From IMG/VR virus record IMGVR_UViG_3300027690_000096: 64,000 nt of DNA; one strand, given 5' to 3'. Under the pieces are notes generated by a model that saw nothing but the letters and a program-made list of their open reading frames with translations, had not been told where the DNA came from and ran no database searches. This document shows positions 1-64,000 of the stretch, piece by piece (the stretch's first letter is position 1; each line of letters begins with the position of its first letter). The stretch is from a virus. A program made the translations under genes and the position numbers.

Positions 1-17
1 GCTTAAATATTTCAAGA

Positions 18-371
18 TTGGATGATTATAATAAAAATTATGACATAGTAGAATTTTTAGAACATAATCGAAATGAATACTTCAGAAAGAAAAAAATATT
101 AGACGATCAATATAAACCAATCATACTAATCATATTAAAATCTTGCATTAAAGGAATATTCACAATGTTAATTATTTCAATATTTTTTGTTATATTAACC
201 ATATTATTTAAACTAAACAATTATGCCATTTTGCCTGATGGCTTTTGGCTTAAAAAGTGGTTTTTGATTCCTTTACTTACGGTAGCTCTAATACTTAACT
301 TCTTTTTTTATGAACTCGCGCTACATGAAATAAAACATGAACAATTAAAATCATATTATGGTATGAAATAA
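18..371 (+). CDS. Hypothetical membrane protein (2 TM)
   Basis: ORF track; two hydrophobic segments. Confidence 0.6.
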   Translation: MDDYNKNYDIVEFLEHNRNEYFRKKKILDDQYKPIILIILKSCIKGIFTMLIISIFFVILTILFKLNNYAILPDGFWLKKWFLIPLLTVALILNFFFYELALHEIKHEQLKSYYGMK

Positions 372-379
372 TAAATTAA

Positions 380-859
380 GTGAGATGTGAGGTGTTTATA
401 ATCGTAAAGAAAAAAACTATACAAATCAAAAAAATTGACCGAGAAAAGATGGCTCAAAATCTTGAATACATAGCTGATGATGTCAAGAATATTAAACTTA
501 TACCTAGGAAATATTTTGGATTAAAATCTCTCAGGATTAACCAAAATGAATACAACGCAATATTTACTTATTTTGGAAAGAAATATATTGGTTTGATATA
601 TATAATTGGTTTTATATATGAATTATTAACTACATCCTTTGGAATATGTCTATCTATAATATTATTAGTATGCCCATTAATAATTAATCAATTATTTATA
701 GTTAAATTTTCAATATTGATTTCAGGTGCTTTATTAATGTTCATTTCAATTAAATATTATTACTTAAGCTTTTTTGGGGAACAAAACTTTATTAGCTCAT
801 ATAAAGCAGTAAAAACTCTAAGACCAAAACTCAACAAATTAAGAGATGATAATCAATAA
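380..859 (+). CDS. Hypothetical membrane protein
   Basis: ORF track; hydrophobic central segments. Confidence 0.55.
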   Translation: MRCEVFIIVKKKTIQIKKIDREKMAQNLEYIADDVKNIKLIPRKYFGLKSLRINQNEYNAIFTYFGKKYIGLIYIIGFIYELLTTSFGICLSIILLVCPLIINQLFIVKFSILISGALLMFISIKYYYLSFFGEQNFISSYKAVKTLRPKLNKLRDDNQ

Positions 860-880
860 AAGATAAGTGAGATGTGAAAC

Positions 881-1297
881 ATGACAGACAATAAACAAAT
901 AGAAAAAAGCAAGGACAAAAAGAATAATACAATATTAGTAATCACAATATCAGCCGCTACGTTTTGTATATTAGTATTCTTTCTGATATTCGCATTAATT
1001 ACAACAAAAGTTGAAATTGAAACCGAAGGTTGGTGTAATTCAGGTTACATAGGACTTGACATAGAGGGCTACAACAATATCCAAAACAAGACTTGCACAA
1101 AACCTGTATGGGATAACGTAACGCAAAGCTATAAGGATTTACCTGACCCAGAAATGGAAAACATCACTTGCTTTATAGAGGATTATCAACTTAAACATGT
1201 AAAACTAAAAGACATAAACGGGCTTAACTGCGAAGGAAAAGCAAAGGTAAAAATGCCTTTCATATTAAGCATATTATGGGGTGGTATTTATGAATAA
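881..1297 (+). CDS. Single-pass membrane protein with Cys-containing ectodomain
   Basis: Basic N-terminus, one TM helix, four Cys in the extracellular part. Confidence 0.6.
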   Translation: MTDNKQIEKSKDKKNNTILVITISAATFCILVFFLIFALITTKVEIETEGWCNSGYIGLDIEGYNNIQNKTCTKPVWDNVTQSYKDLPDPEMENITCFIEDYQLKHVKLKDINGLNCEGKAKVKMPFILSILWGGIYE

Positions 1298-1826
1298 AAC
1301 AATAATAACAGCAATACTGATATCTGTCTTACTGATATCAGCAGCCTTTGCGCACAAGCCATACATCATCGGCAAGACAAAAAATGACATCCTTGTAAAA
1401 GAACCAGAGATATCCAAAGCATACTACGGAGAACTTAAAGGCGATGATATGTTTTATGTGATATCTTCAGACACGGATTTCGAGCTTTATGTCAACATAC
1501 TGGCTCCTGACCTATCGCCTGAAACACAACATAATAACAGCGATTTATCACTCTGGATAACAGACAATAATAACCTTGACATCCGACTTAAAGGCGAAGA
1601 CTGGAACTGGACAAAGTTCTATGAGGAATACGGAAGAGATAATTACCTTAAAGGCGCAGAATACAAAGCCAACGTATCATCTGGAATATATTACATCGTA
1701 GTCTACAGCAAAACAAACTCAGAGAAATATGCTCTCGTTATAGGCGAAAAGGAAGACTTTAATCTCTTCACATACATATCAGCATTCATAAAAGCAATAT
1801 ACCTCGACTGGTGGTTTTTCGAATGA
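1281..1826 (+). CDS. Secreted hypothetical protein
   Basis: Signal peptide (MNKTIITAILISVLLISAAFA), beta-rich body, aromatic C-terminal helix. Confidence 0.7.
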   Translation: MVFMNKTIITAILISVLLISAAFAHKPYIIGKTKNDILVKEPEISKAYYGELKGDDMFYVISSDTDFELYVNILAPDLSPETQHNNSDLSLWITDNNNLDIRLKGEDWNWTKFYEEYGRDNYLKGAEYKANVSSGIYYIVVYSKTNSEKYALVIGEKEDFNLFTYISAFIKAIYLDWWFFE

Positions 1827-2146
1827 TTGGCATACGATTGAGTTGGGAATGCGTAAATTGCGGGAACGTAATCAAGACAGTCTCTCCTTTTTGGGACGCT
1901 GAAGTCAGAAAGAAAATAGTTGAGCCCAAGAGATGCGGTTGCGGAAGAAAAGGCGAATTCAGACTTTTGAATTTCAGCAGATGCACATACCTTGTCCTTC
2001 CAGAAGGGACAAGGATTGTTGATAAGGATGGAAACACTGTATATGAGGAGAATAGCGAATCAACTGAAGCAGAAGAATCAGGGCTATCAGCAGAAAACAA
2101 TAACATAAGTTACAGCGATGATGACGATGAAACAATCAAAGACTAG
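1811..2146 (+). CDS. Small Zn-finger protein resembling the MCM zinc finger, with acidic tail
   Basis: ECVNCGNVIKT...EPKRCGCGRKGEFR aligns by eye with ECPSCGNIIPT...EPNHCGCGRRGKFR of the MCM at 56700-58781. Confidence 0.7.
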   Translation: MVFRMIGIRLSWECVNCGNVIKTVSPFWDAEVRKKIVEPKRCGCGRKGEFRLLNFSRCTYLVLPEGTRIVDKDGNTVYEENSESTEAEESGLSAENNNISYSDDDDETIKD

Positions 2147-2315
2147 AATCAACAAAAAGCATTTATGTTATTCCTGCAAATTGTATGACATTGATTGTGA
2201 CAAATGCGGTTTCAACGGAGAACCAGACATATTAAAATCAAAGGTTACCGAATGCGGAACATATGAGAAAATAGACGGGAGAAAGAGGAGAAAATATAAG
2301 AATTTGTATAATTAA
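2118..2315 (+). CDS. Small Cys-rich hypothetical protein
   Basis: Two CxxC motifs; in-operon position. Confidence 0.5.
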   Translation: MMTMKQSKTRINKKHLCYSCKLYDIDCDKCGFNGEPDILKSKVTECGTYEKIDGRKRRKYKNLYN

Positions 2316-2321
2316 TTTAAA

Positions 2322-3377
2322 ATGAACCTCTCAACTGAGTTATCATTGGCTGAATTGACCCCTGAAGTCATTGCGCAAATAGACTTGAGAGTTGCAGGAC
2401 AGATTGTCAGAGGCAGAGCAATACACCTGTCCCACAAGGTCAACGAAGAGCTAATGCAACCTATCAGTCATTGGCTTGACGACCCAGACTGGATGACTCG
2501 GTTTACTGTATATGATGGCGAATTGCCTAATTGGGCAGTTTATAAGCAAAAACAGCGAGAGTGGGATGAATACCAGAAACAAGAACAAGCTATTAAGATG
2601 CGGTTGTATTGGTCAGAGGTTACTAGACTAAGGAACATGAGATCAGAAGTTTCAAAGATGTTAGCTGAATCAAGACTATCTAATGACATTGACATACAAC
2701 CCACAGACACGCCATGCGCAGACAATCCTTGCAGTGAAGATTACATCTCGCCTTTGCTTGAATCATACAGCCCAATCGCTGAACACAAGCGAAACATAAG
2801 ACAGGAATTCATCCAATCCCTTAGCCAGTCGATATCAAACCTTTTGCCGTGGCGAACCATCCTATTGTCGGAGATAAGCGAAAGCCTAAACCGAAGCCAG
2901 TCTGATTCACTTTCACTCTCAAGCCTTCAGATATATTATGAAGAAGACAAAAAGAAAGACATCGCTTCTAAGCTGATGCATCTATTACAGCTTGACAAAG
3001 ACGGCGACATCACAATTTCACAATCTGAGCCTTTCGGGGAAATATCTGTATCAATACCTTCTTTAGCTGGTATCGACTCCATAAAAACAAACACCAACAT
3101 CAACACCTACATTGAAAACAAGAATCCCCCAGATTCTTATAGTAATACACACAATCCAGTTGAAGAATGCAGATACGCTTTCCAAACAAATCGATTCCTC
3201 TCTCTGGAAGGCTCAGAACTTTCAAACAAACATCTGATTGACTATCCGTCTGACATCAACATTCAGGACACAGACGGGAACACTTACCTATTCGACTGGA
3301 AACAGCTCAGCAATGCCCAGAGGAACAAGGTCATTGCCGATATAAAATCCAACAAAATACTATGCAAGGCGATATAG
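2322..3377 (+). CDS. Hypothetical protein containing a ScpA/kleisin-like C-terminal winged-helix motif
   Basis: Segment ASKLMHLLQLDKDGDITISQSEPFGEISV matches the remembered ScpA pattern LL.L...g.I.i.Q.e.FG.I. Confidence 0.55.
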   Translation: MNLSTELSLAELTPEVIAQIDLRVAGQIVRGRAIHLSHKVNEELMQPISHWLDDPDWMTRFTVYDGELPNWAVYKQKQREWDEYQKQEQAIKMRLYWSEVTRLRNMRSEVSKMLAESRLSNDIDIQPTDTPCADNPCSEDYISPLLESYSPIAEHKRNIRQEFIQSLSQSISNLLPWRTILLSEISESLNRSQSDSLSLSSLQIYYEEDKKKDIASKLMHLLQLDKDGDITISQSEPFGEISVSIPSLAGIDSIKTNTNINTYIENKNPPDSYSNTHNPVEECRYAFQTNRFLSLEGSELSNKHLIDYPSDINIQDTDGNTYLFDWKQLSNAQRNKVIADIKSNKILCKAI

Positions 3378-3723
3378 ACATCACATAACATTCACAGAGG
3401 GTCCCCTCAAGATTCTGTGATTAATGGCAGATGACAATGTTTTGGAAACACCTCTTTTTCGTTGCCAAATGAAGCCTACCCTACACAATCGCAGAACCTC
3501 ATCAAATCAAATCAAAAATCCACATATAAAATAAACTTAAAAAAAAATCAAACTAATAAAAATCAAAAGCAAAACCAAAACTCATCATACCATCGTCGGA
3601 ATGATGAGTTCTTGATACAGCTTTTATCAGTTAATAATATTCGCAATGCATAACGATACAGTAGGTTATGCGTATTAATACAGCGATAAATGGATATTAT
3701 ACGCAATTGAGAGGTCAGACAAA

Positions 3724-4116
3724 ATGCACAAAATAACCAAAGAAGAAGCAAAAGAATTTGTTTTAAAACAAAACTACGAGATTATACTTAGCACTAAATT
3801 AAGTAATTATACAATAGATGATAACTCTTATGATACTATTTACTTTCCAATATCCAAAGAAGAATTTATGAAAGAAATTCAAGAAGAAGAAGTTGTATGG
3901 ACATCAGAAGGAGAGATTTTAGGATATTGGGATGATTGGGAAGAATTGCTTGATAATTTAGTACAAAGTTCAGAAGAAACAGAAGAAGAGTTTTGTTTAT
4001 TTTGTGCAGAAAGAGATATTGATTGGAAAGATTATGTAGAAGAGTCTGACCTCTCAACTCAAGCAAAATCAAAGATTTTGGCGTATAATAAAGGTTATGA
4101 GGTAAATCAAAAATGA
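3724..4116 (+). CDS. Acidic phage-like hypothetical protein
   Basis: ORF track; GAGGT RBS upstream. Confidence 0.6.
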   Translation: MHKITKEEAKEFVLKQNYEIILSTKLSNYTIDDNSYDTIYFPISKEEFMKEIQEEEVVWTSEGEILGYWDDWEELLDNLVQSSEETEEEFCLFCAERDIDWKDYVEESDLSTQAKSKILAYNKGYEVNQK

Positions 4117-4194
4117 TTTACCCAAATTGGCTAAAGCCAACTTCTCATAACCTAAATATTATGTTCAATAAAAACCCATACGGAGAATGATAAG

Positions 4195-4557
4195 ATGAAA
4201 GAGATAATATTACCAGATGATTGTTACAAGCATCCAGATAGAGATTATACTTGGGAGATGGATTGGATGGAAATTGAAGATAAGATTAAAGAATTGAGAA
4301 AACAGATATATCATCTTCAAAATTGTAGAAAGAAACAACCACAAATAGCCGTATTCAGAAAAGAGAAATATGGAGATGGGGAGATGAGGGTTCATGTTTT
4401 CAGAGGTTTCAAAATCATGGATGAAAAAGAACGGCTATTTTGTGCTGATAATTGGCATCCAATCCAAGAGAATGAAGCTAAACAACTAAAAGAAAAGTAT
4501 AATCTCACAGAAGATGCTTTGAGGGTAATAGATGAAACACTTAAACAAAATAAATAG
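4195..4557 (+). CDS. Hypothetical protein
   Basis: ORF track; GGAGA RBS-like sequence upstream. Confidence 0.6.
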   Translation: MKEIILPDDCYKHPDRDYTWEMDWMEIEDKIKELRKQIYHLQNCRKKQPQIAVFRKEKYGDGEMRVHVFRGFKIMDEKERLFCADNWHPIQENEAKQLKEKYNLTEDALRVIDETLKQNK

Positions 4558-4989
4558 TCCGTCTGGGTTTTTACTTTGCCCTAACGGACAACTCTCTAAC
4601 GAGAGGAACATAATAGGAATTCCGATATTAAGTGAAATTTAAATCAGGTGCTAAAATGGAAGAAGAAATTAAATGCTGTGAAACTTGTAGGTTTCATTAT
4701 TTAAGTGGAACATATAATAGTCCAAAATGTTTCCCATTTAAAAATAACACTTGTGTTTATAAGACAAATTCAGAATTTAATAAATTTAGAGGTAACTGAA
4801 ATGTTTATAAGAATGAATGAAGGAGAAAGTATTGTTATACAAGCAAGAAATTCTGATAACCCGAAGAAATCTATATGTGTTATTTGTAGAGGAAATTGGG
4901 TTGGACTAAAAGAATTTGATAACGCACCTGATATTAAACGAAATTCCGAAAAAACCATTACGAGCTTAAAAACAAATTGAAAACAACAA

Positions 4990-5568
4990 ATGACTCCCAA
5001 AACAAAATCCAAGCAAAATAGGATATATAAGCAGAAACTTTTCTTAGTTTCGTTGCGAGATAAACTCATTGAGTTTGATGATCCAAATCCGTCAATCATC
5101 ACTCACGACAGCTATGAATACATTGTCAAGAACATCTCAGGCATTGGCAGGATTCCAGCTATCCGCTTTTTTCCATATGGTAGAACCGTCAAAATAAAGG
5201 CTGATATAATGCGTTCTGCTAATATACATGACCATAAGCTTGAGAAAGAGATAGATGAAATTCGGGCAAAATACACACCAAAAGTCGCAAAGGACAAGGA
5301 AAGCCGTATCCTTGCAAGAAGGTTTGAATCCTATTGGAACAGCTATTGGCGAGGCGTAAGAACCGCTATTAATCGTATCGAGCAAGCACAAAAGCTCTTT
5401 ATCACGAGCAAATCTGAAACCATCAGTAAGCCTATGCAAATCCTGATGGGAAACAAGCTGAATATGATTCATAAGAATAATCAAACTAATCAAGATAATC
5501 AAACTAATCAAAATAATCAAAATCAGAAAACTAAATCGTATGCAGACGAACTCATGGAGGTAGATTAA
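4990..5568 (+). CDS. Hypothetical basic protein with C-terminal NQT/NQD tandem repeat
   Basis: ORF track; repeat at about 5478-5525. Confidence 0.65.
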   Translation: MTPKTKSKQNRIYKQKLFLVSLRDKLIEFDDPNPSIITHDSYEYIVKNISGIGRIPAIRFFPYGRTVKIKADIMRSANIHDHKLEKEIDEIRAKYTPKVAKDKESRILARRFESYWNSYWRGVRTAINRIEQAQKLFITSKSETISKPMQILMGNKLNMIHKNNQTNQDNQTNQNNQNQKTKSYADELMEVD

Positions 5569-5578
5569 GATTGCAGTA

Positions 5579-5917
5579 ATGGAACATCAAAAAGGAAACT
5601 GCTTCTTCGGGAATGATAAGCCATGCGATGATTGTCCTGAAGCAAAACATTGCAGAAATTATACAAAATTAAATAAAATTAATTACGAAGATAAACCTGA
5701 AGAAGAAAGAATCAAAAAGGTGTTATTAAAAATATTACAAGAAAGGCAGGTAACCCACTTATCTGCTGGGACAATGATTTGTTTTTGTAATGTTTGTGGT
5801 AACAGGGCAGATATTCTTGTTGATGGGGTTTGTAATTGTTGTAAAAGAGGTCAACATAAATTATACACAACGAAAGAAGTAATAGAAGTCATAAGACGCC
5901 TGGTATCAAGGCAATAG
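5579..5917 (+). CDS. Cys-rich (Zn-binding) hypothetical protein
   Basis: Several CxxC motifs. Confidence 0.6.
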   Translation: MEHQKGNCFFGNDKPCDDCPEAKHCRNYTKLNKINYEDKPEEERIKKVLLKILQERQVTHLSAGTMICFCNVCGNRADILVDGVCNCCKRGQHKLYTTKEVIEVIRRLVSRQ

Positions 5918-5929
5918 ACATAAACAAGG

Positions 5930-6202
5930 GTGATTAAAACGAAAAGAGAAAAGAAATCAATATGGGTCAGTCTTTACAAACATCCGAAAAATAATGAAAT
6001 CTTAATCGAGCTTGGCAAAATAAACGCCTCAGAAATGATTTACAATTTTGATAAAAATAAAAAGGAATTTATTGAAATTGGCTATCCTCATCTATTCGAA
6101 TATGTCAGATTGCCAAGGCTGATGAACTATAACGAAATGACTGAATGGATAGGCACACAAGAAGAAATCAGACAGAAGATTGAAAGGTATAGTCAAAAAT
6201 GA
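5930..6202 (+). CDS. Hypothetical protein
   Basis: ORF track; stop overlaps next start. Confidence 0.5.
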   Translation: MIKTKREKKSIWVSLYKHPKNNEILIELGKINASEMIYNFDKNKKEFIEIGYPHLFEYVRLPRLMNYNEMTEWIGTQEEIRQKIERYSQK

Positions 6203-6564
6203 ACATCCTAGTAACAACCCCAAAATCTGAAATCGATACCTCCAGAAAAGAAGGACAAATGGTCGAACAGGAAGGAGGATATTGGTTCAGAACATTCAAG
6301 TTCAAGCCGAAGGTTGAGCCTGGCGACAAAATATTCTTCACAAACGGATTCATCAAAGGCTATGGGATAATCTTCGAAGTCTCACAAGCCGATGAAGAAG
6401 GAGAACAATGCGAACTCACAGGCAGAATATGGAGTGGGAATTGGATAGTCAAATACCACGACTGGCACTGGCTACATACTCATATTCCATTCAAAGGATT
6501 TCAAGGCATTCGATACATAGACAGAATGCCTGAGCTGAAAGATAAACTCATGGAGGTTGAATGA
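6199..6564 (+). CDS. ASCH/EVE (PUA-fold)-like protein
   Basis: PGDKIFF..GFIKGYGII and PFKGFQGIRY motifs resemble phage ASCH-like proteins. Confidence 0.5.
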   Translation: MNILVTTPKSEIDTSRKEGQMVEQEGGYWFRTFKFKPKVEPGDKIFFTNGFIKGYGIIFEVSQADEEGEQCELTGRIWSGNWIVKYHDWHWLHTHIPFKGFQGIRYIDRMPELKDKLMEVE

Positions 6565-6716
6565 TATGGCACTTGCTTATGTTGAGGCTCATAATAAAAT
6601 CGAACAGGCGATAAACCTTCTTGATGGCTATTCAGCATTCAAGGACATACAGGATGATTTGAAGATATTGAAAGAAAAAATGGCAGATTTAATTTGGTAA
6701 TCTTATTACAAAACAC

Positions 6717-6745
6717 TTGACAACTTCATAACAAGATTTTAACAT
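6717..6745 (+). promoter_or_regulatory. Bacterial sigma70-type promoter
   Basis: TTGACA (6717-6722), 17-nt spacer, TAACAT (6740-6745), upstream of the AbrB-like gene. Confidence 0.6.
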
Positions 6746-6784
6746 CCCACGTTAAATAATAACACCAAAACAAAGGAGAACGTT

Positions 6785-7288
6785 ATGCCTAGAAGAAAAG
6801 AAGTTGATAATAAAGCCCTGCTCAAAGATATCAAAGAAGGAATCTCTCAAGCAGATTTGTTAAAGAAATATGGCTTTAAAAGTGCAATTTCGTTAAAAAT
6901 GGCACAGCTCAAAGCTCTTGAAGAAGAACAAGGTATAATCCCAATCAAAGGAACAGGCAGATCAAGGAAATCTAAACCTATTGAATTAAATGTAAAAATC
7001 AATTCAAGAGGCTCTTTAATACTGCCAAAAGTCCTAATTGAAAGCATGGACTTCAAGCAAGGCGAAAGCTTTGAAGTAAAAAGAACTCCATCGGGTATCA
7101 TGCTGAAGTCTGTTGAAGAATCACGAACCGCTCAACAGCAGTCAGAACAAGAACCTTCAGATACTCAATCATCCGAACAAGCGTCTGAACAATCCCACCT
7201 GGGAGACCAGCCTGATAAGGCAGATAAGGCTGATAAGGTAGAAAAAGCTGAAAAGAAAGAAAGGAAAGCAAAAAAGACTGAAGATTAA
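6785..7288 (+). CDS. AbrB/MazE/SpoVT-family DNA-binding protein with N-terminal helical domain and low-complexity tail
   Basis: KINSRGSLILPKVLIESMDFKQGESFEV is a swapped-hairpin AbrB motif; AAGGAG RBS. Confidence 0.75.
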   Translation: MPRRKEVDNKALLKDIKEGISQADLLKKYGFKSAISLKMAQLKALEEEQGIIPIKGTGRSRKSKPIELNVKINSRGSLILPKVLIESMDFKQGESFEVKRTPSGIMLKSVEESRTAQQQSEQEPSDTQSSEQASEQSHLGDQPDKADKADKVEKAEKKERKAKKTED

Positions 7289-7697
7289 TCTAAGGTTAAT
7301 CGAAGGTTAACGGGCAACATTTTTACTAAAACCTCTATAACACCAAAATTTAAAGCCATCAGCCTTTAATTCGGCAAATAGCCCTTTGCTATAAAACTAC
7401 TTGTTTGCCATACCTTTTATATATACACTCGCCTCAATACCACCCCCCGACGACAAACCTAAAAATCTCACAATCCCCCAATAGTCAGAATCCAAGACCT
7501 CCCTAAAAATCCATCAAAAATTATCCAATTGCCCAGGAAATACCCCTTATGAAATAGGTTCCATCACAAAAATACACTTTTCGTAACCAAACGATTTTTC
7601 AAAAACAATGAAAATGCCTAAATCCTCACTTTTTGGAAATAGGTGGATTTTGGACATTTTGACAAATTGGACAACAGAATAAAACAGGTGATTTGAT

Positions 7698-8225
7698 ATG
7701 AAACAAGCGGACTATCATGCAAAACTCAAGATTGCTAAGTCAGATAAGATAGCTTTAGATAGATATAAGATATATAGAGTGACAGACCCTATCCAGTTTG
7801 CCTATTTATTCTTCCCTGCAAGAAACGCAACACATTCAAGAGCAGCATTCTTGGCTATATATTTTGAGATCAAGAATGCTGAAAAGCAAAGACTACCAAC
7901 TACTGAGCATATACCTGAAAAATATGACATCAATAGAGCAACGGTCATAAAAGCAAGGACAAAGATGGTAAGTCTCGGGCTTATATCAAAACAAAGATAT
8001 GGTTGGATATTTTGCAGTGTCTTTAAGAACACACTTGAAAAATTACTTGAGTTGATAGAAACCTATAAAAGTCCTATTGAAAGGATAAGCCAGCTTGAAG
8101 GCGAAAAAATGTATATAGAAATGGCTAAAGGAGAACTCAAAAAAGAAAATCAAGAAGATGGTGATGAATTCATCTTTGGCAAAACAAAAAAATGGATTAG
8201 AAGAATCCATATTGATGATGATTAA
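7698..8225 (+). CDS. Winged-helix-type DNA-binding hypothetical protein
   Basis: IPEKYDINRATVIKARTKMVSLGLI is HTH-like. Confidence 0.55.
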   Translation: MKQADYHAKLKIAKSDKIALDRYKIYRVTDPIQFAYLFFPARNATHSRAAFLAIYFEIKNAEKQRLPTTEHIPEKYDINRATVIKARTKMVSLGLISKQRYGWIFCSVFKNTLEKLLELIETYKSPIERISQLEGEKMYIEMAKGELKKENQEDGDEFIFGKTKKWIRRIHIDDD

Positions 8226-8226
8226 C

Positions 8227-8814: not shown

Positions 8815-8839
8815 TTAACTTTTAAAAAATAGAGGGGAT

Positions 8840-55471: not shown

Positions 55472-55493
55472 AATAACCACTAAAAAGAGGTTA

Positions 55494-55507
55494 GAAAGAT
55501 TTATATA
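55494..55507 (+). promoter_or_regulatory. Archaeal BRE-TATA-like promoter upstream of the replication operon
   Basis: GAAAGA + TTTATATA directly after the palindrome array. Confidence 0.5.
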
Positions 55508-56030: not shown

Positions 56031-56721
56031 AACAACTTCACAAAAGAGGATATCTTCTATATATGATTTTGTAGCAAAACTTGATGTGACAAATACTCAA
56101 AATATTAGTCTTCACTTTGAGAGAACTTTTAATGATATACTATCAATATTTTTTGATAAGTGGAAATGTAAATTAATTTATGTCTTATATAATGTTGAAA
56201 TTTCAAGTATATGGGAATTATCTAATCATTTCAACCTTTGTTATAATTATAGAAAAGATATGAATACTATATTAATGGATCTTGAAACAAAGAACATCGT
56301 TGAAGAAATTTATAGCGATACTGTTGAGTGTAAAACACTTCGTAAAGTATGGGAAATACTTCATCCTAATGGGAAGAGGACATATAGAAAAACAAAACTT
56401 TTCAAGTTATCTGATGATTTTAAATCAGTATTTGAATTATTCTTAGACGAGGTTTATTCAAAATATATTTACAGAAGTGAATATCTAAATATTGAAATAA
56501 GAAAAATATCTTTTCATAAAATCTATAATGAAATAATAGGAAAAGAGAAACAATCTTTAGTTCTTGATGAAAATTGCATAGGAAGATGCTTTAAATGTAA
56601 TCAACCTATCAGTAAAGACTCAACTGAATACATGAATATCTATGAAGGTGTAGTTCATAAGACATGCTTTAAGAACACTCCGCAAAAAGAAGCAATAACA
56701 TGGAAACAGAAACACAAATAA
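56008..56721 (+). CDS. Winged-helix plus Zn-finger protein (candidate initiator or MCM loader)
   Basis: ILMDLETKNIVEE...LFKL wHTH-like; CFKC...HKTC; overlaps the mcm start. Confidence 0.5.
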   Translation: MIQITNIETTSQKRISSIYDFVAKLDVTNTQNISLHFERTFNDILSIFFDKWKCKLIYVLYNVEISSIWELSNHFNLCYNYRKDMNTILMDLETKNIVEEIYSDTVECKTLRKVWEILHPNGKRTYRKTKLFKLSDDFKSVFELFLDEVYSKYIYRSEYLNIEIRKISFHKIYNEIIGKEKQSLVLDENCIGRCFKCNQPISKDSTEYMNIYEGVVHKTCFKNTPQKEAITWKQKHK

Positions 56722-58781
56722 CCACCTTCAGAAATATAATAGACTCATATTACTATGAATCTCTTATTGAATCTGTTAGGAATGGGAATAAATTCTTTGT
56801 GATAGATTTCCAAGATATTTCTAAGAGCAATATTGAACTTGCAGATGATTTGCTTGAAAACCCTGAAGAATGCCTTAAATCTGCAGGTATAGCAATATCT
56901 CAGTTTGACCTTCCTGTTTCACATACACCAGACATAATAATAAGAATCAAGAATCTTCCAAAAATACAAATAAAAAGAATAAGAGACCTCAGAAGCAAAC
57001 ATATTGGAAAATTTATCTGTTTAGAAGGAACTATAAGACAAAAGAGCGAGATAAGACCTCAGATAATCGCGGCAAAATTTGAATGTCCATCTTGTGGTAA
57101 CATCATACCAACTCTTCAGATTGACAGTAAATTTAAAGAACCAAATCACTGTGGTTGCGGAAGAAGAGGAAAATTTAGGATGATATCAAAAGACCTGATT
57201 GACGCTCAAAACGTAAAGCTTGAAGAAGACATTGACGCTCTTGACGGAGGAGAGCAACCAAAAAGACTTAACATATTCATGCAAGATGATTTAATCACTC
57301 CTCTGCTTGAGAAAAGAGCTTACCCAGGCTCAAAAATAAAGGTTAACGGGTATCTAAAAGAAACTCCAGTAATCCTAAAAAACGGTGGAAAAAGCACAAG
57401 ATTAGAATGGATATTTGAAGCCAATTATTTTGAATCAATTAATGAGGATTTTGGTGAAGTCAAGATAAGCGATAATGAAAAGATGGAAATCGAAATTATG
57501 TCTCAGGAAGATGATATAATCCATCGCTTAGTAAAATCAATCGCTCCTTCAATATATGGGCATGAAAGAATCAAAGAAGCCCTTCTTATTCAGCTTGTCG
57601 GAGGAGTTAAGAAATACCAGCAAGACGGAATGAAGATTAGAGGGGATATGCATGTCCTTCTTATAGGCGACCCAGGTTCTGGAAAATCTCAATTATTAAA
57701 GAGAATAAACAAAATCGCCCCAAAATCAAGATTTATAAGCGGTAAAGGTGCATCAGCCGCAGGACTAACGGCATCCGTAGTAAGAGATGATTTTATGGGT
57801 GGCTGGGCGCTTGAAGCTGGGGCATTAGTTCTAGCAAACAAAGGACTAATCTGTATTGACGAGCTTGACAAGATGTCAAAAGATGACACAAGCGCAATGC
57901 ACGAGGCCCTTGAAGGACAGCTTGTCACAATCTCAAAAGCTAATATTCAAGCAACTTTGAAATGCGAAACAACAGTCCTTGCAGCAGCCAACCCTAAGTT
58001 TGGTAAATTTGACCTTCACGCAAAAACAATAGCAGACCAGTTTGAACTGCCTTCGACATTGATAAATAGGTTTGACTTGATATTTCCTATAAAGGATATA
58101 CCAGACAACAAAAAAGATGAGAAATTAGCTAAATTCCTGATTAATGTCCACATAAAATCTAATAATCATAAAACTAATAATCAAAATACAGAGACCTCAA
58201 ATAATGTAAATAAGCAAATCATAGATAATAATAATATAATTGACACTGATATGCTTCGCAAATATATTGCCTATGTAAGAACATTAACACCTATAATAAC
58301 TGAAGAAGCAAGTAAGCAATTCGTTCAATATTATCTCAAGATGAGACAAAGCGGTTTAAAGGAAGGTTCAGTTAAATCTATACCTATATCAGCAAGACAG
58401 CTCGAAGGGCTTATAAGAATGTCAGAAGCATTTGCAAAACTAAGAATGCGAGATAAGGTAACAATTGAAGATGCGAATCAGGCAATAAACCTTCTTGATT
58501 TTTGTTTAAATCAAATAGCTTTTGATGATCAGACTGGAACGATTGACATAGACAGGATAACAACAGGCATAACAGCAAGCTCAAGAAACAATATTTCTAT
58601 CTTGAAAGATATAATTAATACGCTTGAAGATAAGTTTGGGAAATGTATTCCTATAAGCGAGATATCACTTGTTGCATCAGATAGAGGAATATCAGAAGAT
58701 AATCTTGAACCTACTCTTGATAAACTAAAAAAGGCAGGTGATGTATTCGAACCGAGAAGAGGATTTATTTCAAAATTTTGA
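56700..58781 (+). CDS. mcm: Archaeal MCM replicative helicase
   Basis: GDPGSGKS Walker A, IDELDKM Walker B, AAANPK.G.F, LINRFD and ISARQLE arginine motifs, Zn finger, C-terminal wHTH. Confidence 0.98.
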   Translation: METETQITTFRNIIDSYYYESLIESVRNGNKFFVIDFQDISKSNIELADDLLENPEECLKSAGIAISQFDLPVSHTPDIIIRIKNLPKIQIKRIRDLRSKHIGKFICLEGTIRQKSEIRPQIIAAKFECPSCGNIIPTLQIDSKFKEPNHCGCGRRGKFRMISKDLIDAQNVKLEEDIDALDGGEQPKRLNIFMQDDLITPLLEKRAYPGSKIKVNGYLKETPVILKNGGKSTRLEWIFEANYFESINEDFGEVKISDNEKMEIEIMSQEDDIIHRLVKSIAPSIYGHERIKEALLIQLVGGVKKYQQDGMKIRGDMHVLLIGDPGSGKSQLLKRINKIAPKSRFISGKGASAAGLTASVVRDDFMGGWALEAGALVLANKGLICIDELDKMSKDDTSAMHEALEGQLVTISKANIQATLKCETTVLAAANPKFGKFDLHAKTIADQFELPSTLINRFDLIFPIKDIPDNKKDEKLAKFLINVHIKSNNHKTNNQNTETSNNVNKQIIDNNNIIDTDMLRKYIAYVRTLTPIITEEASKQFVQYYLKMRQSGLKEGSVKSIPISARQLEGLIRMSEAFAKLRMRDKVTIEDANQAINLLDFCLNQIAFDDQTGTIDIDRITTGITASSRNNISILKDIINTLEDKFGKCIPISEISLVASDRGISEDNLEPTLDKLKKAGDVFEPRRGFISKF

Positions 58782-58880: not shown

Positions 58881-59111
58881 ATGCCACATGAAGAACAAAG
58901 AACAAAGAAAGAATGTCCTCTTCTTAACGGAAGTATGACTGGTCGCCTAATGAGTGATTACATGAGAGGGGATAAAGGAATTGATGTAAACAAAACCAGA
59001 AGAATGACAGAATTAGAAAAGGCATTTGTTAAACAAATAAAAAAAAAGCTTGCTCTCAAGAATCAGAGAGCAAGCATTACAAAAACTGAATCTTCAGAAA
59101 TTGAGGTCTAA
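58881..59111 (+). CDS. Small hypothetical protein
   Basis: AGGTGA RBS; ORF track. Confidence 0.5.
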   Translation: MPHEEQRTKKECPLLNGSMTGRLMSDYMRGDKGIDVNKTRRMTELEKAFVKQIKKKLALKNQRASITKTESSEIEV

Positions 59112-59958
59112 AATTCCATCTTCAAAACACCATCTTTTCACTCCTTACACTCCAGAAGGAAAACAATTCATTGAGATGTATAATTCTGCAGATAAAGTTG
59201 GAATCCAAAAAAGGCTTTCGCAACATTTTAGCATCAGCATCCCTACAGTCTACAGGATAAGGAAAAACCTGAAACTGCCAGACTTTCATGACAAAAAGAA
59301 TCATCCTGGTAAAATTAATCTTATGAAACGAATAAGAAAGCTTTATATTAATAAAGAGAGAAGCACTATCCAGATAGGTCAAATATTAAGAATCTCGTCT
59401 GAAAAAGTAAGATACATGCTGTTAAAGATGAGAGTCACATTACGACCTTCTCATGTCACAAATCCATCCTACTATAAAACTAGGCAGACCAAATTCACTC
59501 CTTATCAGCTCTTGCAACAAATACGGAACTTGTATCTCTATGAACATCTTCCAATACTGCATATCTCAAATAGATTAGGGATAAGTGAGGAATCAGTCCG
59601 AACCAAACTTAAAGCTATGAAAATCCATAAACCAAGAAAATTAGATTATTCGACATTAACAAAGGCTAACTGTCAATGGTGCAACACATTATTTCCGCAA
59701 TACATCAGTAAAGGCCCCAAAACTCAGAGATACTGCTCTCCAAGATGTTCTAACAAGGCAAAAGATTATCGTAGGATTATTAAGGACAGAATCTCGCATG
59801 AAAAAAGGATTAAATCTATGGAAGATTCTCTAAAGAACACTTGGAAGGACAAATTTGAAGAAATAAAGGATAAAATCCTCTCAGTCAAACCCGCTCGAAC
59901 TCAAAAGATTCAGCTCAATAATTCTCTACATTGCAAACAAACATATCAAGAAGCTTGA
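59050..59958 (+). CDS. Protein with three HTH repeats and a C4 Zn finger
   Basis: SISIPTVYRIR, RISSEKVRYML, GISEESVRTKL; CQWC...YCSPRC. Confidence 0.65.
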   Translation: MLSRIREQALQKLNLQKLRSKIPSSKHHLFTPYTPEGKQFIEMYNSADKVGIQKRLSQHFSISIPTVYRIRKNLKLPDFHDKKNHPGKINLMKRIRKLYINKERSTIQIGQILRISSEKVRYMLLKMRVTLRPSHVTNPSYYKTRQTKFTPYQLLQQIRNLYLYEHLPILHISNRLGISEESVRTKLKAMKIHKPRKLDYSTLTKANCQWCNTLFPQYISKGPKTQRYCSPRCSNKAKDYRRIIKDRISHEKRIKSMEDSLKNTWKDKFEEIKDKILSVKPARTQKIQLNNSLHCKQTYQEA

Positions 59959-60262
59959 TTCCCAAGTTATTGAGAGCTTTCAAAACAATCGACATTTTCT
60001 CAGGCTCGTATTTCTTCAGCATCACTTCCTGTTGAACAATCCTGTCAGATATAAGCCTTCCATTCTTAACAACCGTTTCAGACACAATATAACTATCGCC
60101 TGGTCTAAGCGGACTAAGGATAACATTATCGCCTATTTCCTTAAGCCTTATATCTGCAAAAATCACATCCGATGAAAAAAGGCAAAATAACAATGAGAAA
60201 ATCATCAAGCCAACAACTATAGCAATCCAACTCATTTTTCTTCTTTTGAGTATTTTCTGCAT
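59915..60262 (-). CDS. Small membrane-anchored/secreted protein (start MQKIL, chosen over the track start 60397)
   Basis: AAGGAGGA RBS at 60270-60277; N-terminal TM. Confidence 0.55.
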   Translation of the reverse strand: MQKILKRRKMSWIAIVVGLMIFSLLFCLFSSDVIFADIRLKEIGDNVILSPLRPGDSYIVSETVVKNGRLISDRIVQQEVMLKKYEPEKMSIVLKALNNLGIKLLDMFVCNVENY

Positions 60263-60433
60263 GACAATATCCTCCTTAGTGACAGGATTATAACATGTTT
60301 CATAACAGGATTCATAACATGAACTCCATACAATTAAGTTATGTAAGAAAAAAGAATATGTCAAGCAAAAAACATAACAACTATCCAATAATTTCAAACA
60401 TTTATATTGAGTTTAAACTAAAAAATGTTAAAG

Positions 60434-61726
60434 TCAATGCACTGATAGGACTATCTGCCCGTGACCAAAAAGAAAACATTCGCCTTGCATAAACCCAAAT
60501 ATTATATCTTTATTCATGAAAATCATCTCATTGCTTGGCTCGATCCGATATGCCACCTCTATATAATGCTTCGCGTTATAAGAATCGCCTGAACTAAAAA
60601 AGCAGACAGCAATATTATTATTCAATGATGCATCTTCGGGATATGTTTCCAACAATATTCTATAAATCTCCAAAGACTTTTGTGTATGACCTGTATGACT
60701 ATAAACTAATGCTAAATGACTTATCGTATAAAAGTTTCCTTCACTTATGGCATTCGCTCTCTCTAAAGTCTTGACAGCTTTCATATAATCCTTATCTGCA
60801 ATATATGATATACCTAAATTAGTCAAAATATTACTATCTTTTGGTAGAATAGCCTCAGCAGTTTCAAGCAACCCTACTGATTCCTTTATTTTATCGAGAT
60901 TGAAATAAGCCAAAGCTAAATTATTGATTATATTTGCATCTTTTGGATTGATCTGGTCAGCTTTCTCTAATACAAACATCGCTTTATAGAACTGCTTAGT
61001 CCTCAGATACGATTCTCCGAGATTGCAAAGGATAGAAATATTTCTATTATCATTGTCATCCTCATTGTCATTAACATTAGCATTAGCATTAGCCTTATCA
61101 TTAATTAAATCGTTAGCCTTCTCAAGATAATTTATTGCTTCATTGAACAAACCTCTCTTCATGTAAACAACACCTAATAGATTCATCACTTCAGTATTGT
61201 CTGGGTCAATCTGTAAAACCATTTGCGAATATTCAATTGACTTATGATATTCTTTCATAAGGAAATAAATGTAAGCCAGCCTTGATATGAAATCCTTATT
61301 ATCTGGATAATATTTGTTCAGTAAATTAAAAGCTTTTAACGAGTTATCAAGCAATCCCTTCGCTAGACATCTATCTCCTATATCAATAATCAGTTGAATC
61401 GCTTCAATCTCTGGTCTGCTTTGATTGACAATCAGTATATCCTGTAAGCATCCGAGAGCCTCATCAAACTTTTTGTATTTCTTGAAATCATTGGCTTCTA
61501 TTAATTTGCTTTCGATAAAATCTTTTTGCAAATCATTGAAAGCATTTGATTTATAGAGTCTCTGGAAAAATTCAAAGTTATTCCTGCACTCCTCACACTC
61601 GAAAGAATGTTCTTCCATCTCATATTTAATCTTCCAGTCAAGCTCATGGTTGACAAAATACTCGAATAAATACTGATTGAATTTAGAGCAGTCCATAACT
61701 TCTCTCAGTGAAGATATCATAACCAT
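60434..61726 (-). CDS. zf-HC2 anti-sigma domain fused to TPR repeats
   Basis: MDC......Y....L.......EEHSFECEECR (HxxxCxxC) followed by many TPRs. Confidence 0.85.
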   Translation of the reverse strand: MVMISSLREVMDCSKFNQYLFEYFVNHELDWKIKYEMEEHSFECEECRNNFEFFQRLYKSNAFNDLQKDFIESKLIEANDFKKYKKFDEALGCLQDILIVNQSRPEIEAIQLIIDIGDRCLAKGLLDNSLKAFNLLNKYYPDNKDFISRLAYIYFLMKEYHKSIEYSQMVLQIDPDNTEVMNLLGVVYMKRGLFNEAINYLEKANDLINDKANANANVNDNEDDNDNRNISILCNLGESYLRTKQFYKAMFVLEKADQINPKDANIINNLALAYFNLDKIKESVGLLETAEAILPKDSNILTNLGISYIADKDYMKAVKTLERANAISEGNFYTISHLALVYSHTGHTQKSLEIYRILLETYPEDASLNNNIAVCFFSSGDSYNAKHYIEVAYRIEPSNEMIFMNKDIIFGFMQGECFLFGHGQIVLSVH

Positions 61727-62498
61727 ATTTTTCTTTTGCGCGATTCCTCACACATTTTGCCATATATGAATTTGCTTGAGATATTATCCGATTAATCCAA
61801 TTAGGAGATTTCTTTATTTCCCTGCTTATCATACCTCCTGACATATTCTTGAAATAATGGCACACCATTATATAATAGTCTTGTTCAATATTCTTTTCAG
61901 GTCTGCTTGACTTCCATCTATCAAGGCAATTAAAAAACATCTTAATATTTTTCTTATACTCTTTTTTTATGTTCAGCGATTCAGGATTATCTTCAACAGG
62001 CTTATAATGGCTTAACAAAACATCATCATCAATATCAGATTCATCATCAGAAGCCTCATTTCTCAAGCTTGACACATTGACTTCTTTATACATCCTGCCT
62101 CTTTGGATTGTCTCATTCACTCGCACAACATATTTAGCTTCTTTGACACTTATATTTTCTTTATCAGCCATATAATCAACTTTCTGCTGAAAATCTTTTA
62201 TCTCCCTCGCTTTAATCATATTAAGCCCTACTTGATTCTTCAGACATGTTTTTATTGCTTTCATGCAATAAAATGCATAATAAGACTTGTTCTCTATTTT
62301 TCTGGATTTGTCTTTCAGAATCTCGACATATGTATCATTTACAACATCCTCAATCAATTCATTGCCTAATATATCAGCCCCAGCCAAACGGACAACAATA
62401 GCTTTAATATATCTGTAATCCTCGACAGAATTTATATCAAAATATTTTTTACTGCCTGTAATCTGTTTTTTGTCTGCTTCTGGCAATTCTCTCTCCAA
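61683..62498 (-). CDS. ECF-type sigma factor-like protein
   Basis: Region 2-like IEDVVNDTYVEIL; region 4-like HYFKNMSGGMISREIKKSPNWINRIISQA; directly upstream of the zf-HC2 gene. Confidence 0.65.
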   Translation of the reverse strand: MERELPEADKKQITGSKKYFDINSVEDYRYIKAIVVRLAGADILGNELIEDVVNDTYVEILKDKSRKIENKSYYAFYCMKAIKTCLKNQVGLNMIKAREIKDFQQKVDYMADKENISVKEAKYVVRVNETIQRGRMYKEVNVSSLRNEASDDESDIDDDVLLSHYKPVEDNPESLNIKKEYKKNIKMFFNCLDRWKSSRPEKNIEQDYYIMVCHYFKNMSGGMISREIKKSPNWINRIISQANSYMAKCVRNRAKEKYGYDIFTERSYGLL

Positions 62499-62611
62499 AA
62501 TAATCTTTTCAAAAAAAAATTTTAAAAATTAAAAAAAATGTTCCTGTTTTGGATTTTGCGCAACCTTAGTAAGCAAGAAAGAATTAATACAAACTAAATC
62601 GAGGTTTTGTC

Positions 62612-63133
62612 ATGATAGATTATGAGAACTATCCAGATTCAAGCCAGGATGTCAAGCAAAATCCTGATATCAGGCAAACCGAGCCTGGCATAACCCTCAA
62701 CACCCAAAAAATCAAAGTCCTTCTAACAACTGAAGAGGTATTGAGGATAAACAGCGAATCAGGTTTTCCTTCAATAAGAGAATCTGTCAGAGAGATAAAT
62801 GGACAACCAGTTGAAGTCATTGAAGAACTGTATCGCATTGACCCTATCGGAAGAGTCATACGCAATGATGACTTTGCAGGCATAAGTTGGCTGATGAAGA
62901 AAATAATCCCTTCAGACCTTATCGCAATCTGTCCAGGTTATTTCGGGGTTCATCAAGACCCAAGGCAACTATGCTTGTTTGTTGACGGTTTTCCAATAAC
63001 CTTTGAACCTGATTTTGAAGACAGTGAGCTTGCAGGGAAAACCCTATCATTCTGTTCTACATGCCATAAAATCTTTAGCGAGCATGTCAAATGGTATAAA
63101 CGAAGCAGTTGGCTTTTCCCACTGCACATCTGA
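62612..63133 (+). CDS. Hypothetical protein
   Basis: GAGGT RBS; ORF track. Confidence 0.55.
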   Translation: MIDYENYPDSSQDVKQNPDIRQTEPGITLNTQKIKVLLTTEEVLRINSESGFPSIRESVREINGQPVEVIEELYRIDPIGRVIRNDDFAGISWLMKKIIPSDLIAICPGYFGVHQDPRQLCLFVDGFPITFEPDFEDSELAGKTLSFCSTCHKIFSEHVKWYKRSSWLFPLHI

Positions 63134-63182
63134 TTGATGTAACTTTGTAAAGCAAGGAAAATTTCAAAACAGGATAAATGCG

Positions 63183-64000
63183 ATGCTTAAGCCAGCCAGA
63201 AAATCAGGTTTAGAATCTTTTGAATATTGGAACGACATCATTGAAACTCTTGACATGGGCGGTATGACTAGAGACCCATTAATACTCAAGGCTTGTAAGC
63301 TTTGCAACGAAACAGGGTATTATAAGCTACTTCGAGATATTCTAACAAGAAAACCTCAAATCCTTATGGCTGCAAAGCGAAACATATCTGAACAGAAAAA
63401 GTTTCCTTTCATGCCTTATCCTTGGAAACGTAAAGATTTAGCAAAGCTTTCAGGCAAATATGACATCGGCATAATAAACAACAATGGCGACCGAGCAGGA
63501 TTAGACCCTATTGATTTCACAAGAGGTTTATTCATCTGCGGTGAGACAGGCTCAGGAAAATCCTATCCGTCTTTAAGGCTGATGAAACAGATATTCTCTG
63601 AACCGATCGATAAGAGAGGCTTTAATGTAATCGTTGTTCAGTCTGTCAAGCGAGATGCAGATTTTTTGCTAAATACAAACAAAGATATAGTCATCCTTGA
63701 TTGGCAGGACATTCGAAGGTCTCCTTTATTTGTTGAACCTTGGGACAAACAAGCCTCAAAAATCAGTTCTTTTTGTGATGTTTACTCATCTGTCAATTGG
63801 TTAATGATGCACGGTCAACCTCTTCTAAGCAACACATTGAAAATATGCCTTAACAAATTCGGCAACGACACAAACTTTGAACATCTGTTTGACCATGTTG
63901 ACCTTTCAGCAAAATACATCGGTCTTCTTGGACCAGAACACCGCAACTCCAGAGACCATTTGAAGTTCTCTTTATTCTCTTTCAAAGAGACGGGCAGTAT
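63183..64000 (+). CDS. HerA/DUF87-like P-loop ATPase, 3'-truncated by the window (not in ORF track)
   Basis: Hand translation is open from ATG 63183 to the window end; GLFICGETGSGKS Walker A at about 63540-63563. Confidence 0.8.
   Translation, partial: MLKPARKSGLESFEYWNDIIETLDMGGMTRDPLILKACKLCNETGYYKLLRDILTRKPQILMAAKRNISEQKKFPFMPYPWKRKDLAKLSGKYDIGIINNNGDRAGLDPIDFTRGLFICGETGSGKSYPSLRLMKQIFSEPIDKRGFNVIVVQSVKRDADFLLNTNKDIVILDWQDIRRSPLFVEPWDKQASKISSFCDVYSSVNWLMMHGQPLLSNTLKICLNKFGNDTNFEHLFDHVDLSAKYIGLLGPEHRNSRDHLKFSLFSFKETGS

Follow-up and report, generated by a model that had tools for sequence, protein, structure and literature searches.

A 73.8-kb integrative element with a probable bacterial host and an archaeal-type MCM cassette, seen through a 64-kb virus-database record

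The window and its element family

The 64,000-nucleotide stretch analysed here, referred to as the window, comes from IMG/VR virus record IMGVR_UViG_3300027690_000096 and holds about 75 genes at a GC content of 28–41%. It makes up 64 kb of a 73,802-bp contig that carries the window's own cpYpsA and ATPase proteins. No tRNA and no Rfam family was found within its 64 kb. From left to right, the window contains regulators, methyltransferases and small open reading frames (ORFs), a large HerA/DUF87/TraG-like ATPase with its neighbours, a 24-kb module of secreted and membrane proteins and, at ~55.1–59.96 kb, a cassette of about 4.8 kb around a full-length archaeal-type MCM helicase gene. Every block except ~55.1–59.9 kb has homologues in one family of elements, some members of which lie in bacterial chromosomes. 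We consider it likely that the contig is a 73.8-kb integrative element of an anoxic-sediment bacterium, probably conjugative or self-transmissible, with the archaeal-type MCM cassette in a variable replication slot.

The source is a sediment metagenome sequenced with short reads, and the sequence-only reading had asked for continuity across 6.7, 12.15, 20.2, 29.0 and 59.9 kb, where it placed boundaries between archaeal and bacterial DNA. A second assembly, from JGI (sample 3300005254), holds the same DNA in two contigs that correspond to −4681 to 32218 and 32657 to 69107 in window coordinates. Its break (~32218–32657) falls inside one intact ORF for a 1100-aa repeat-containing secreted protein (29819–33121), a single open frame in the window's assembly. 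Logan contigs from SRR5506739 cover −733 to 11842, 11813 to 24715, 24686 to beyond 30000 and 36497 to 62567, and a tail contig extends past the window. The depths on single Logan contigs crossing 12.15, 20.2 and 29.0 kb were 25.2, 25.2 and 26.3, respectively; other Logan contigs cross 6.7 and 59.9 kb, and the one at 36.5–62.6 kb holds the entire MCM cassette. The strand switch at 29.0 kb is kept in a 74.7-kb contig from a different sample (L015), and codon usage is homogeneous between the blocks, with correlations (r) of relative synonymous codon usage (RSCU) of 0.77–0.95. All five points were spanned, with an even depth of 25–26x at the three where it is given.

The relatives share the window's backbone to different extents. 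The 74.7-kb ENA contig_36 (loci L009 and L015) has in common with the window, in the same order, an AbrB-like gene (58% identity), cpYpsA (75%), small ORFs (47–80%), the ATPase operon (68%), DUF2958, RadC and SprT; beyond a strand switch of the 29.0-kb type, the first genes of the 24-kb module follow SprT in the same order at 47–88%. FLOH01000773.1 (L014) carries the 20–29 kb block at 47–78%, and a 4.45-Mb ENA contig (L013) carries the DUF4942 methylase (60%), the ATPase (58%) and others. A 576-kb contig, G305:C4 (L016 and L023), belongs to a Desulfovermiculus metagenome-assembled genome (MAG) of 4.4 Mb. It encodes the first ATPase (50%), a 401-aa protein (44%), RadC, SprT and others, and its element ends with ATPase 2 (32–36%), a small ORF (47%), the excisionase Xis (73%) and the integrase Int (52%), followed by tRNA-Pro(GGG). 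The host part of this contig encodes DnaE (Pol III alpha), AsmA, GAPDH and a response regulator at a GC of 0.56, compared to 0.45–0.5 for the element, and the MAG, which is that of a diderm bacterium, has four sigma70-family genes. By its sequence context, one family member is shown to reside in a bacterial chromosome.

A second metagenome scan, with an alignment of the 401-aa protein as the query, returned 15 more loci. In L035 the order is tRNA-Pro(GGG), Int (54%), Xis (78%), ATPase 2, a homologue of a 173-aa ORF, the slot, the 401-aa protein, SprT, RadC and others; L037 and L046 are further family members. The arrangement ATPase 2, small ORF, Xis (73–78%), Int (52–54%) and tRNA-Pro(GGG) is identical in G305 and L035. 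A PDDEXK-type nuclease is part of the backbone in the relatives, and close homologues of the ATPase lie on contigs of consistent size (72.9–77 kb). Where several blocks share one locus in a relative, the gene order is that of the window. The sequence comparisons thus show a backbone family with a tyrosine integrase and an HTH_17 excisionase at one end beside tRNA-Pro, two large HerA/TraG-like ATPases, DUF2958, RadC, SprT/ArdC-like proteins, DUF4942 and N6/N4 methylases, cpYpsA and the 401-aa protein. The alternation of bacterial-type with archaeal or phage-type blocks that had been proposed from the sequence alone is not borne out, as all but ~55.1–59.9 kb belongs with one family and codon usage is uniform.

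The core operon of this backbone (21716–24489, plus strand) encodes a conserved 227-aa protein and a 686-aa HerA/DUF87/TraG-like ATPase, ATPase 1 (PF01935, PF10412 and PF19044). Its identity is 71% in L014, 68% in L015, 58% in L013 and 50% in L016, and the named matches of ATPase 1 are from Deltaproteobacteria (60%) and Thermodesulfobacteriota (61%). Similar proteins at ~30% identity occur in 10 of 301 Desulfobacterota and 24 of 301 DPANN genomes (36% at most in DPANN), and matches among PLSDB plasmids and INPHARED phages are limited to 27% identity or less; only close relatives of ATPase 1 are informative on the host domain. The cpYpsA (SLOG) protein (11624–12103, plus strand; PF12694, E 4e-58), with 75% identity in L009, has named matches in Syntrophales (66%) and Desulfurivibrio (64%) and none in the 301 DPANN-phylum genomes. 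A DUF4942-type methyltransferase (14434–16044, plus strand; PF13708, E 1e-28) is 60% identical to the copy in L013. Downstream of the core operon, 24665–28940 (plus strand) encodes DUF2958 (PF11171), RadC (PF04002, E 4e-40), an SprT/ArdC-like metalloprotease (PF10263) and conserved small ORFs. The block recurs in the same order at 44–78% identity in L014 and L015 and partially in L013, L016, L035 and L037, and by analogy its content appears to be of the kind found in the leading regions of conjugative elements.

Beyond the strand switch, the 24-kb module (29031–53384, minus strand) is a candidate transfer or envelope apparatus. Signal peptides or transmembrane (TM) helices are predicted in 20 of its 25 proteins, and it includes a third HerA/DUF87-like ATPase of 467 aa (47605–49008), assigned to this type by language-model and structural similarity (Atlas 0.97, TM 0.58). 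Further right lie the conserved 401-aa membrane protein (53901–55106, minus strand; 44% identity in the Desulfovermiculus element and 38–55% in the 15 metagenome loci), which forms the left edge of the replication slot, and, after the MCM cassette, a small membrane ORF, a TPR protein with an N-terminal Cys/His motif (TPR families in Pfam) and a divergent sigma-like protein (59915–62498, minus strand). At 62612–63998 (plus strand), a conserved ORF of 173 aa is followed by the first part of the HerA-like ATPase 2 (734 aa). Past the window end, the contig continues with the rest of ATPase 2, small ORFs, the HTH_17 excisionase (PF12728), the tyrosine integrase (PF00589) and the 3' end of a tRNA-Pro.

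The last 29 nt of the Logan tail contig, 136 nt past the integrase stop codon, belong to a tRNA 3' end (...TTCAAATCCCCGCGTCCCGACCA). Read on the opposite strand, the 29 nt are the T-arm and the 3' acceptor strand, ending CGTCCCG-A-CCA, which gives G72, A73 and an encoded CCA. The tRNA 3' end was seen at the integrase end of the element only. The space between it and the integrase gene contains a terminator hairpin with a homologue in L035. In acceptor strand, discriminator and CCA, the fragment does not differ from the complete tRNA-Pro(GGG) of G305 and L035, both of which adjoin homologous integrases; the tRNA-Pro(GGG) of G305:C4 has the pair C1:G72, and the complete one of L035 has its own TTGACA-N17-GATAAT promoter and hairpin terminator. 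In tRNA-Pro, G72/A73 is conserved in all bacteria, while archaea have C72/A73 (PMC11229370). A 25-mer from the tail, with up to two mismatches allowed, matched 79 of 301 Desulfobacterota genomes (exactly in 2) and one of 301 DPANN-phylum genomes, that one with C72; the reversed 25-mer, as a control, had no matches. The integrase was not found in five Desulfobacterota genomes whose tRNA-Pro end matches that of the contig at 0–1 mismatch. Because the tRNA-Pro end has the bacterial G72/A73 and backbone homologues reside in a bacterial chromosome, we infer that the host is a bacterium and that the element integrates at a bacterial tRNA-Pro gene.

The MCM cassette and the replication slot

The presence of an MCM gene in the window was confirmed. 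The gene (56700–58781, plus strand) encodes a full-length archaeal-type helicase with the complete archaeal domain set: MCM_N (PF14551), MCM_OB (PF17207), MCM (PF00493, E 1e-89), MCM_lid (PF17855) and the archaeal winged helix (PF21120). Several Woesearchaeota MAGs and one MAG labelled Methanosarcinales each encode a single full-length MCM, to which the protein is 50–56% identical. In the MAG labelled Methanosarcinales, Orc1/Cdc6 and the PolD small subunit are encoded close to the MCM gene, which is for this reason regarded as chromosomal. One Woesearchaeota MAG (G004:C54; L006, 7643–12652) has its MCM in a 1669-aa open frame with the two halves about 3 kb apart, and this gene looks intein-containing.

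In phage and plasmid collections, all full-length matches to the window MCM were from archaeal viruses and plasmids, at 27–36% identity; Bacillus phage matches cover the AAA+ core only, or 24% of the query. A search of 401 Desulfobacterota genomes turned up no true MCM, and none was found in the slot of L035, L037, L046 or G305. Scans of IMG/VR with the MCM and with the 467-aa ATPase gave no match, nor did a first JGI metagenome scan with the MCM. Apart from the MCM and one small ORF, none of the window proteins match Woesearchaeota loci. That ORF (1811–2146, plus strand), 55 kb away from mcm, has a stand-alone MCM N-terminal zinc-finger motif that aligns with residues 123–163 of the window MCM (47 aa, 40% identity), and tblastn matches it to the same segment of Woesearchaeota MCM genes. 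It appears to be a second, small trace of an archaeal-type MCM in the window.

The cassette (~55.1–59.96 kb) consists of a palindrome array, small ORFs, a 237-aa ORF, the MCM and a 302-aa ORF. The array (55181–55471) has five palindromes of the form ACTCTCCG-N(4-9)-CGGAGAGT at spacings of 62, 61, 60 and 81 bp, which are candidate origin iterons. The 237-aa ORF (56008–56721, plus strand) overlaps the start of the MCM gene and is a candidate initiator; it has no Pfam match, and its single-sequence AlphaFold model (pLDDT 32) was unusable. At the right end of the cassette, the 302-aa protein (59050–59958, plus strand) has repeated HTH-like segments, a C-terminal zinc ribbon and a weak match to Sigma70_r4 (E 0.009), with no homologue in any relative examined.

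The cassette lies in a slot, bounded by the 401-aa membrane protein and ATPase 2, whose contents vary in the family. In L035, L037 and L046 the slot contains a Sigma70_r4 protein, DUF4384 and TPR or TPR-CHAT proteins. In G305, an AEP-TOTE primase is found beside ATPase 2 and an Orc1/Cdc6-like gene elsewhere on the element. Orc1/Cdc6-like genes (Cdc6_lid and WHD_Cdc6) were identified in L013 (6007–6732), L016 (1965–3188) and L023 (14708–15802), and archaeal-type replication proteins thus appear to recur in the family. L014 has a Toprim-rve protein and a DnaA/IstB-like ATPase at a different position, 3' of the SprT-like gene. Since the relatives hold other genes in the slot, the MCM cassette is a lineage-specific acquisition. 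Its codon usage matches that of the rest of the element (RSCU r of 0.79–0.94), and the capture was therefore not very recent. By sequence, only these ~4.8 kb look archaeal, and their source looks to be a DPANN-like (Woesearchaeota) chromosomal MCM. As a separate observation, two of the TPR-CHAT (caspase-like) proteins in the slot are giant, with 1710 aa in L037 (4563–9695) and 1333 aa in L046 (5571–9572).

Sigma70-like sites and the GAAAAG+TATA motif

The sequence-only reading had relied on promoters of both domains as signs of a mosaic. Its two bacterial promoters are present as described. TTGACA-N17-TAACAT (6717–6745, plus strand; 10 of 12 consensus positions) is upstream of a gene for an AbrB/MazE (SpoVT-AbrB)-like DNA-binding protein (6785–7288, plus strand; weak PF04014 match, E 1.5e-4; a 58% homologue in the 74.7-kb ENA contig), and TTGACA-N17-TATATT (8786–8814, plus strand; 11 of 12) is upstream of an N6/N4 DNA methyltransferase gene (8840–9769, plus strand; PF01555, E 1e-56). 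An ArsR-family HTH regulator (8227–8610, minus strand; PF01022, E 2e-17) is encoded between them. The status of the two sites as native bacterial promoters did not hold up, since they are not distinguishable from chance. There are 92 sigma70-like sites in 1–20 kb, compared to 77 ± 8.5 in shuffled sequences. The whole window has 48 sites with at least 10 of 12 matches, five of which are intergenic and correctly oriented, all in 6.7–11 kb; sites of equal quality lie inside genes, such as an 11/12 site at 58240 within the MCM gene. Exact TTGACA is not enriched in non-coding DNA, with 12 of 86 occurrences there compared to a non-coding fraction of 16%. The 12 nt ACACTTGACAAC (6713–6724) are kept upstream of the AbrB-like gene in both the window and L009 (gene 1457) while the flanks diverge, and they may be a genuine −35 box, an operator or another binding site.

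The CGAAAAG-TATA sites, which had been read as archaeal promoters at 12197, 53522 and 55494, are real and occur beyond chance, two of them with 0–1 mismatch. A position-weight matrix (PWM) identified four sites in the window, all intergenic, on the plus strand and in front of operons. At 12196–12237, GCGAAAAG+TATATAAATA is followed by a conserved palindrome and is a candidate promoter plus operator. The TATA part and the palindrome (CCTATA...TATAGG, 12214–12237) are kept in L009 (~11464–11490), and the palindrome is likely an operator. The site at 21668–21685 is a degenerate copy (18.5 bits with the PWM) upstream of the operon of gene 21716 and ATPase 1, which had been classed as bacterial-type. 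The best copy in the window, TCGAAAAG+TTTATATATT (53521–53538), lies 35 nt before a 72-aa ORF, and a looser copy, TAGAAAGA+TTTATATATA (55492–55509), lies 33 nt before the small ORF that heads the MCM operon.

What did not stand is the use of these sites as markers of archaeal DNA. Equivalents of the 21668 site are present in L013, L014 and L015, and the Desulfovermiculus element (L016, 8635) has the copy that matches best. In every relative, homologues of gene 21716 are preceded by an A-rich stretch, a TATA-like box, 7–9 nt and ATTAC, 39–42 nt 5' of the start codon. The Desulfovermiculus copy, CGAAAAGTTTATAAAA, lies before the core operon in a context of 51% GC and is the only site with one mismatch or less in the 4.4-Mb genome. 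Because the motif is also present in this bacterium-resident copy before core genes, it is no evidence of archaeal transcription. The comparisons suggest that GAAAAG+TATA is a conserved family-specific signal and no marker of the domain of origin. There are strong Shine-Dalgarno sequences, as well as hairpin-plus-T-run terminators that the relatives share; these fit bacterial expression and are not decisive. In the G305 MAG, the exact 15-mer CAAAAATTTTATAAA has about 20 sites on 14 contigs and is probably part of a dispersed repeat or a common promoter-like element.

Possibilities for how the motif may be read are a −10-only promoter, an element-encoded sigma-like factor or a regulator. The candidate for the second is the ORF at 61683–62498, which has Atlas features at 0.96 to sigma70-family clusters. 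Pfam detects no sigma domain in it, a search of 5.8 billion proteins yielded no homologue, and BLASTP found no similarity between it and the Sigma70_r4 protein of L037; its single-sequence AlphaFold model (pLDDT 40) was unusable.

Readings of the element

The results are best accommodated, in our view, by an integrative and probably conjugative element of a sediment bacterium with an acquired MCM replicon. We propose that Int and Xis would excise the element, and that the circular form would replicate with the palindrome array as its origin. In this scheme, an initiator encoded on the element would recognise the repeats and load the hexameric MCM, which would act as the replicative 3'-5' helicase in place of a host DnaB-type helicase. 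The 24-kb module, together with a HerA/VirB4-like ATPase, may mediate transfer, and the methylases, RadC and SprT/ArdC-like genes may shield the incoming DNA. Transcription would be by the bacterial RNA polymerase, with the GAAAAG+TATA box before four plus-strand operons as a family-specific promoter or regulatory site rather than a TBP/TFB promoter; the box might be read by a −10-only or element-encoded sigma-like factor.

The earlier proposal of two sources for this DNA survives in part: the MCM looks DPANN-like and several genes look deltaproteobacterial-like, with the roles of the two sources reversed, as the backbone is bacterial and the archaeal part is one cassette of ~4.8 kb. Gene-by-gene matches gave the same picture, with bacterial named matches for cpYpsA and ATPase 1 and Woesearchaeota closest for the MCM.

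Several observations weigh against this reading. Pfam and PHROG scans of the window proteins returned no relaxase and no named type IV secretion family, and the designation as conjugative is unproven; the conjugation-type parts that are present are the three HerA/DUF87/TraG-like ATPases and the 24-kb membrane and secreted-protein module. The host DNA recovered for the element amounts to 29 nt of tRNA. This fragment could be an attP copy on a free circle, and the host is therefore inferred, not seen. The GC of the element (~36%) is far below the 56% of the Desulfovermiculus host and near the 29–35% of Woesearchaeota MAG contigs, and the ATPase 1-like proteins at ~30% identity in 24 of 301 DPANN genomes were noted above. 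The GAAAAG+TATA motif matches the textbook euryarchaeal consensus of the TFB recognition element and TATA box (BRE-TATA), and its distance of 33–42 nt from start codons would be compatible with leaderless transcripts in archaea, too.

A bacterial virus or phage-plasmid of an unrecognised type, with the 24-kb module as its virion or envelope genes, is an unlikely alternative. HerA/FtsK-type ATPases also package DNA in membrane-containing viruses. The module is large and made of ORFans, no relaxase was identified, and the 72.9–77 kb contigs with close ATPase homologues suggest complete genomes, all of which would suit a virus. Against this, the 29–53 kb region had no Pfam or PHROG match to capsid, portal, terminase or tail proteins (20 module proteins were compared to PHROGs), the IMG/VR scans with the MCM and the 467-aa ATPase came back empty, and the smaller relatives keep the backbone without the 24-kb module. 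A tailed phage was considered and rejected, as the hallmark genes were missing.

The first of two options in the sequence-only reading, a DPANN-like archaeal virus or plasmid that repeatedly captured bacterial DNA along with its promoters, is very unlikely. It would account for the 50–56% identity of the MCM to Woesearchaeota chromosomal MCMs, for the low GC, for the BRE-TATA-like motifs and for the distant HerA-like ATPases of DPANN genomes. It is contradicted by the bacterial G72/A73 of the tRNA-Pro end linked to the attachment (att) site and by the bacterial-chromosome element, in which Int, Xis, both ATPases and the core genes lie in the same order. The absence of cpYpsA from the 301 DPANN genomes and the lack of matches between Woesearchaeota loci and window proteins besides the MCM also count against it. 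There is no sign of repeated capture. Bacterial and supposedly non-bacterial blocks are inherited together in the relatives, and codon usage is uniform.

The second option, an element expressed in both domains, would use Int and tRNA-Pro in bacteria and the MCM replicon with its predicted TATA-type promoters in archaea. In its fullest form, the family would shuttle between domains, integrating at tRNA-Pro in sediment bacteria, with the MCM replicon and BRE-TATA boxes serving in DPANN or other archaea attached to or beside them; such an element, if real, would be a natural bacterium–archaeon transfer vehicle. An archaeal replicon cassette and an archaeal-consensus motif do stand alongside a bacterial integration module, the family carries other archaeal-type replication genes (Orc1/Cdc6-like and an archaeo-eukaryotic primase (AEP)), and the large surface or secretion module could mediate cell contact. 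We nevertheless regard both the cross-domain element and the shuttling family as highly improbable, given that no family member was seen in an archaeal genome, that the motif is also in the bacterium-resident copy, and that AEP primases are common on bacterial mobile elements, where MCM-like helicases are reported too (PMC5862659).

Least of all does an assembly chimera of archaeal and bacterial DNA survive: a short-read source and a JGI assembly broken inside the 1100-aa repeat gene would allow for it, but it is excluded for practical purposes by single contigs at even depth over every proposed junction, by the agreement of two assemblers, by the one Logan contig that spans the MCM cassette, by gene order kept in relatives from other samples, and by the position of the JGI break within one intact ORF.

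An integrative element of a bacterium, as we favour, can be compared to three known kinds of system. Bacterial integrative and conjugative or mobilisable elements at tRNA genes have in common with it Int and Xis beside the tRNA, ArdC/SprT-like proteins, RadC, DUF4942 and N6/N4 methylases, HerA/TraG/VirB4-like ATPases and relatives in bacterial chromosomes. It differs from them in that it yielded no relaxase or recognisable type IV secretion parts, that ORFans make up its putative transfer module and that the replication genes are of archaeal type. The MCM-like helicases of bacterial elements, such as BcMCM of a Bacillus cereus prophage, Cch of SCCmec and the primase-MCM fusions of integrative plasmids (PMC5862659), likewise provide an MCM-family replication motor beside a presumed origin. 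They are described as highly divergent, and the Bacillus phage matches are confined to the AAA+ core, whereas the window MCM is full-length and shares 50–56% identity with chromosomal MCMs of archaea. Host MCMs have also been recruited by viruses and plasmids of archaea, as PMC5862659 relates from Krupovic et al. 2010 for Halorubrum virus BJ1, Methanocaldococcus fervens tailed virus 1 and haloarchaeal and Thermococcus plasmids. In that summary these elements, like ours, would use a full-length cellular-type MCM as the replicative helicase. They reside in archaea and their MCMs resemble those of their own hosts, going by the same summary, whereas in the window element the remaining genes, the att site and the relatives are bacterial and the identity to archaeal-element MCMs is 27–36%.

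Kazlauskas et al. 2018 (PMC5862659) described the MCM genes of bacterial mobile elements as highly divergent and hence considered a recent transfer from archaea unlikely. With a complete cellular-type archaeal MCM and its own repeat array on an otherwise bacterial element, the window element looks like a counter-example to this view. If confirmed, it would be a concrete case of a part of the archaeal replisome working, or being tried out, in a bacterium, and ~55.1–59.9 kb would be a compact replicon open to direct testing. It also illustrates that in AT-rich mobile DNA look-alikes of TTGACA-N17-TATAAT and BRE-TATA fail to identify the host domain, which the 29-nt tRNA end did.

Some minor observations concern cargo and leaders. 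L009 (3200–4865) carries defence and anti-defence cargo: a ThsB TIR gene of the Thoeris type, accompanied by 8xMP and DUF6338 genes, and an N6/N4 methylase that adjoins, or is fused to, a ResIII helicase. A Qat-type defence cluster (KAP NTPase, QatB, a 451-aa protein and TatD; L013, 1–4738) flanks the element copy on the 4.45-Mb contig. Upstream of gene 17149 (~17040–17148), a hairpin, a TATAAA box and an invariant 5' leader, GCCCATCGTGGCGGAGGA, are common to the window, L009 and L014, and this conserved leader may be a regulated one.

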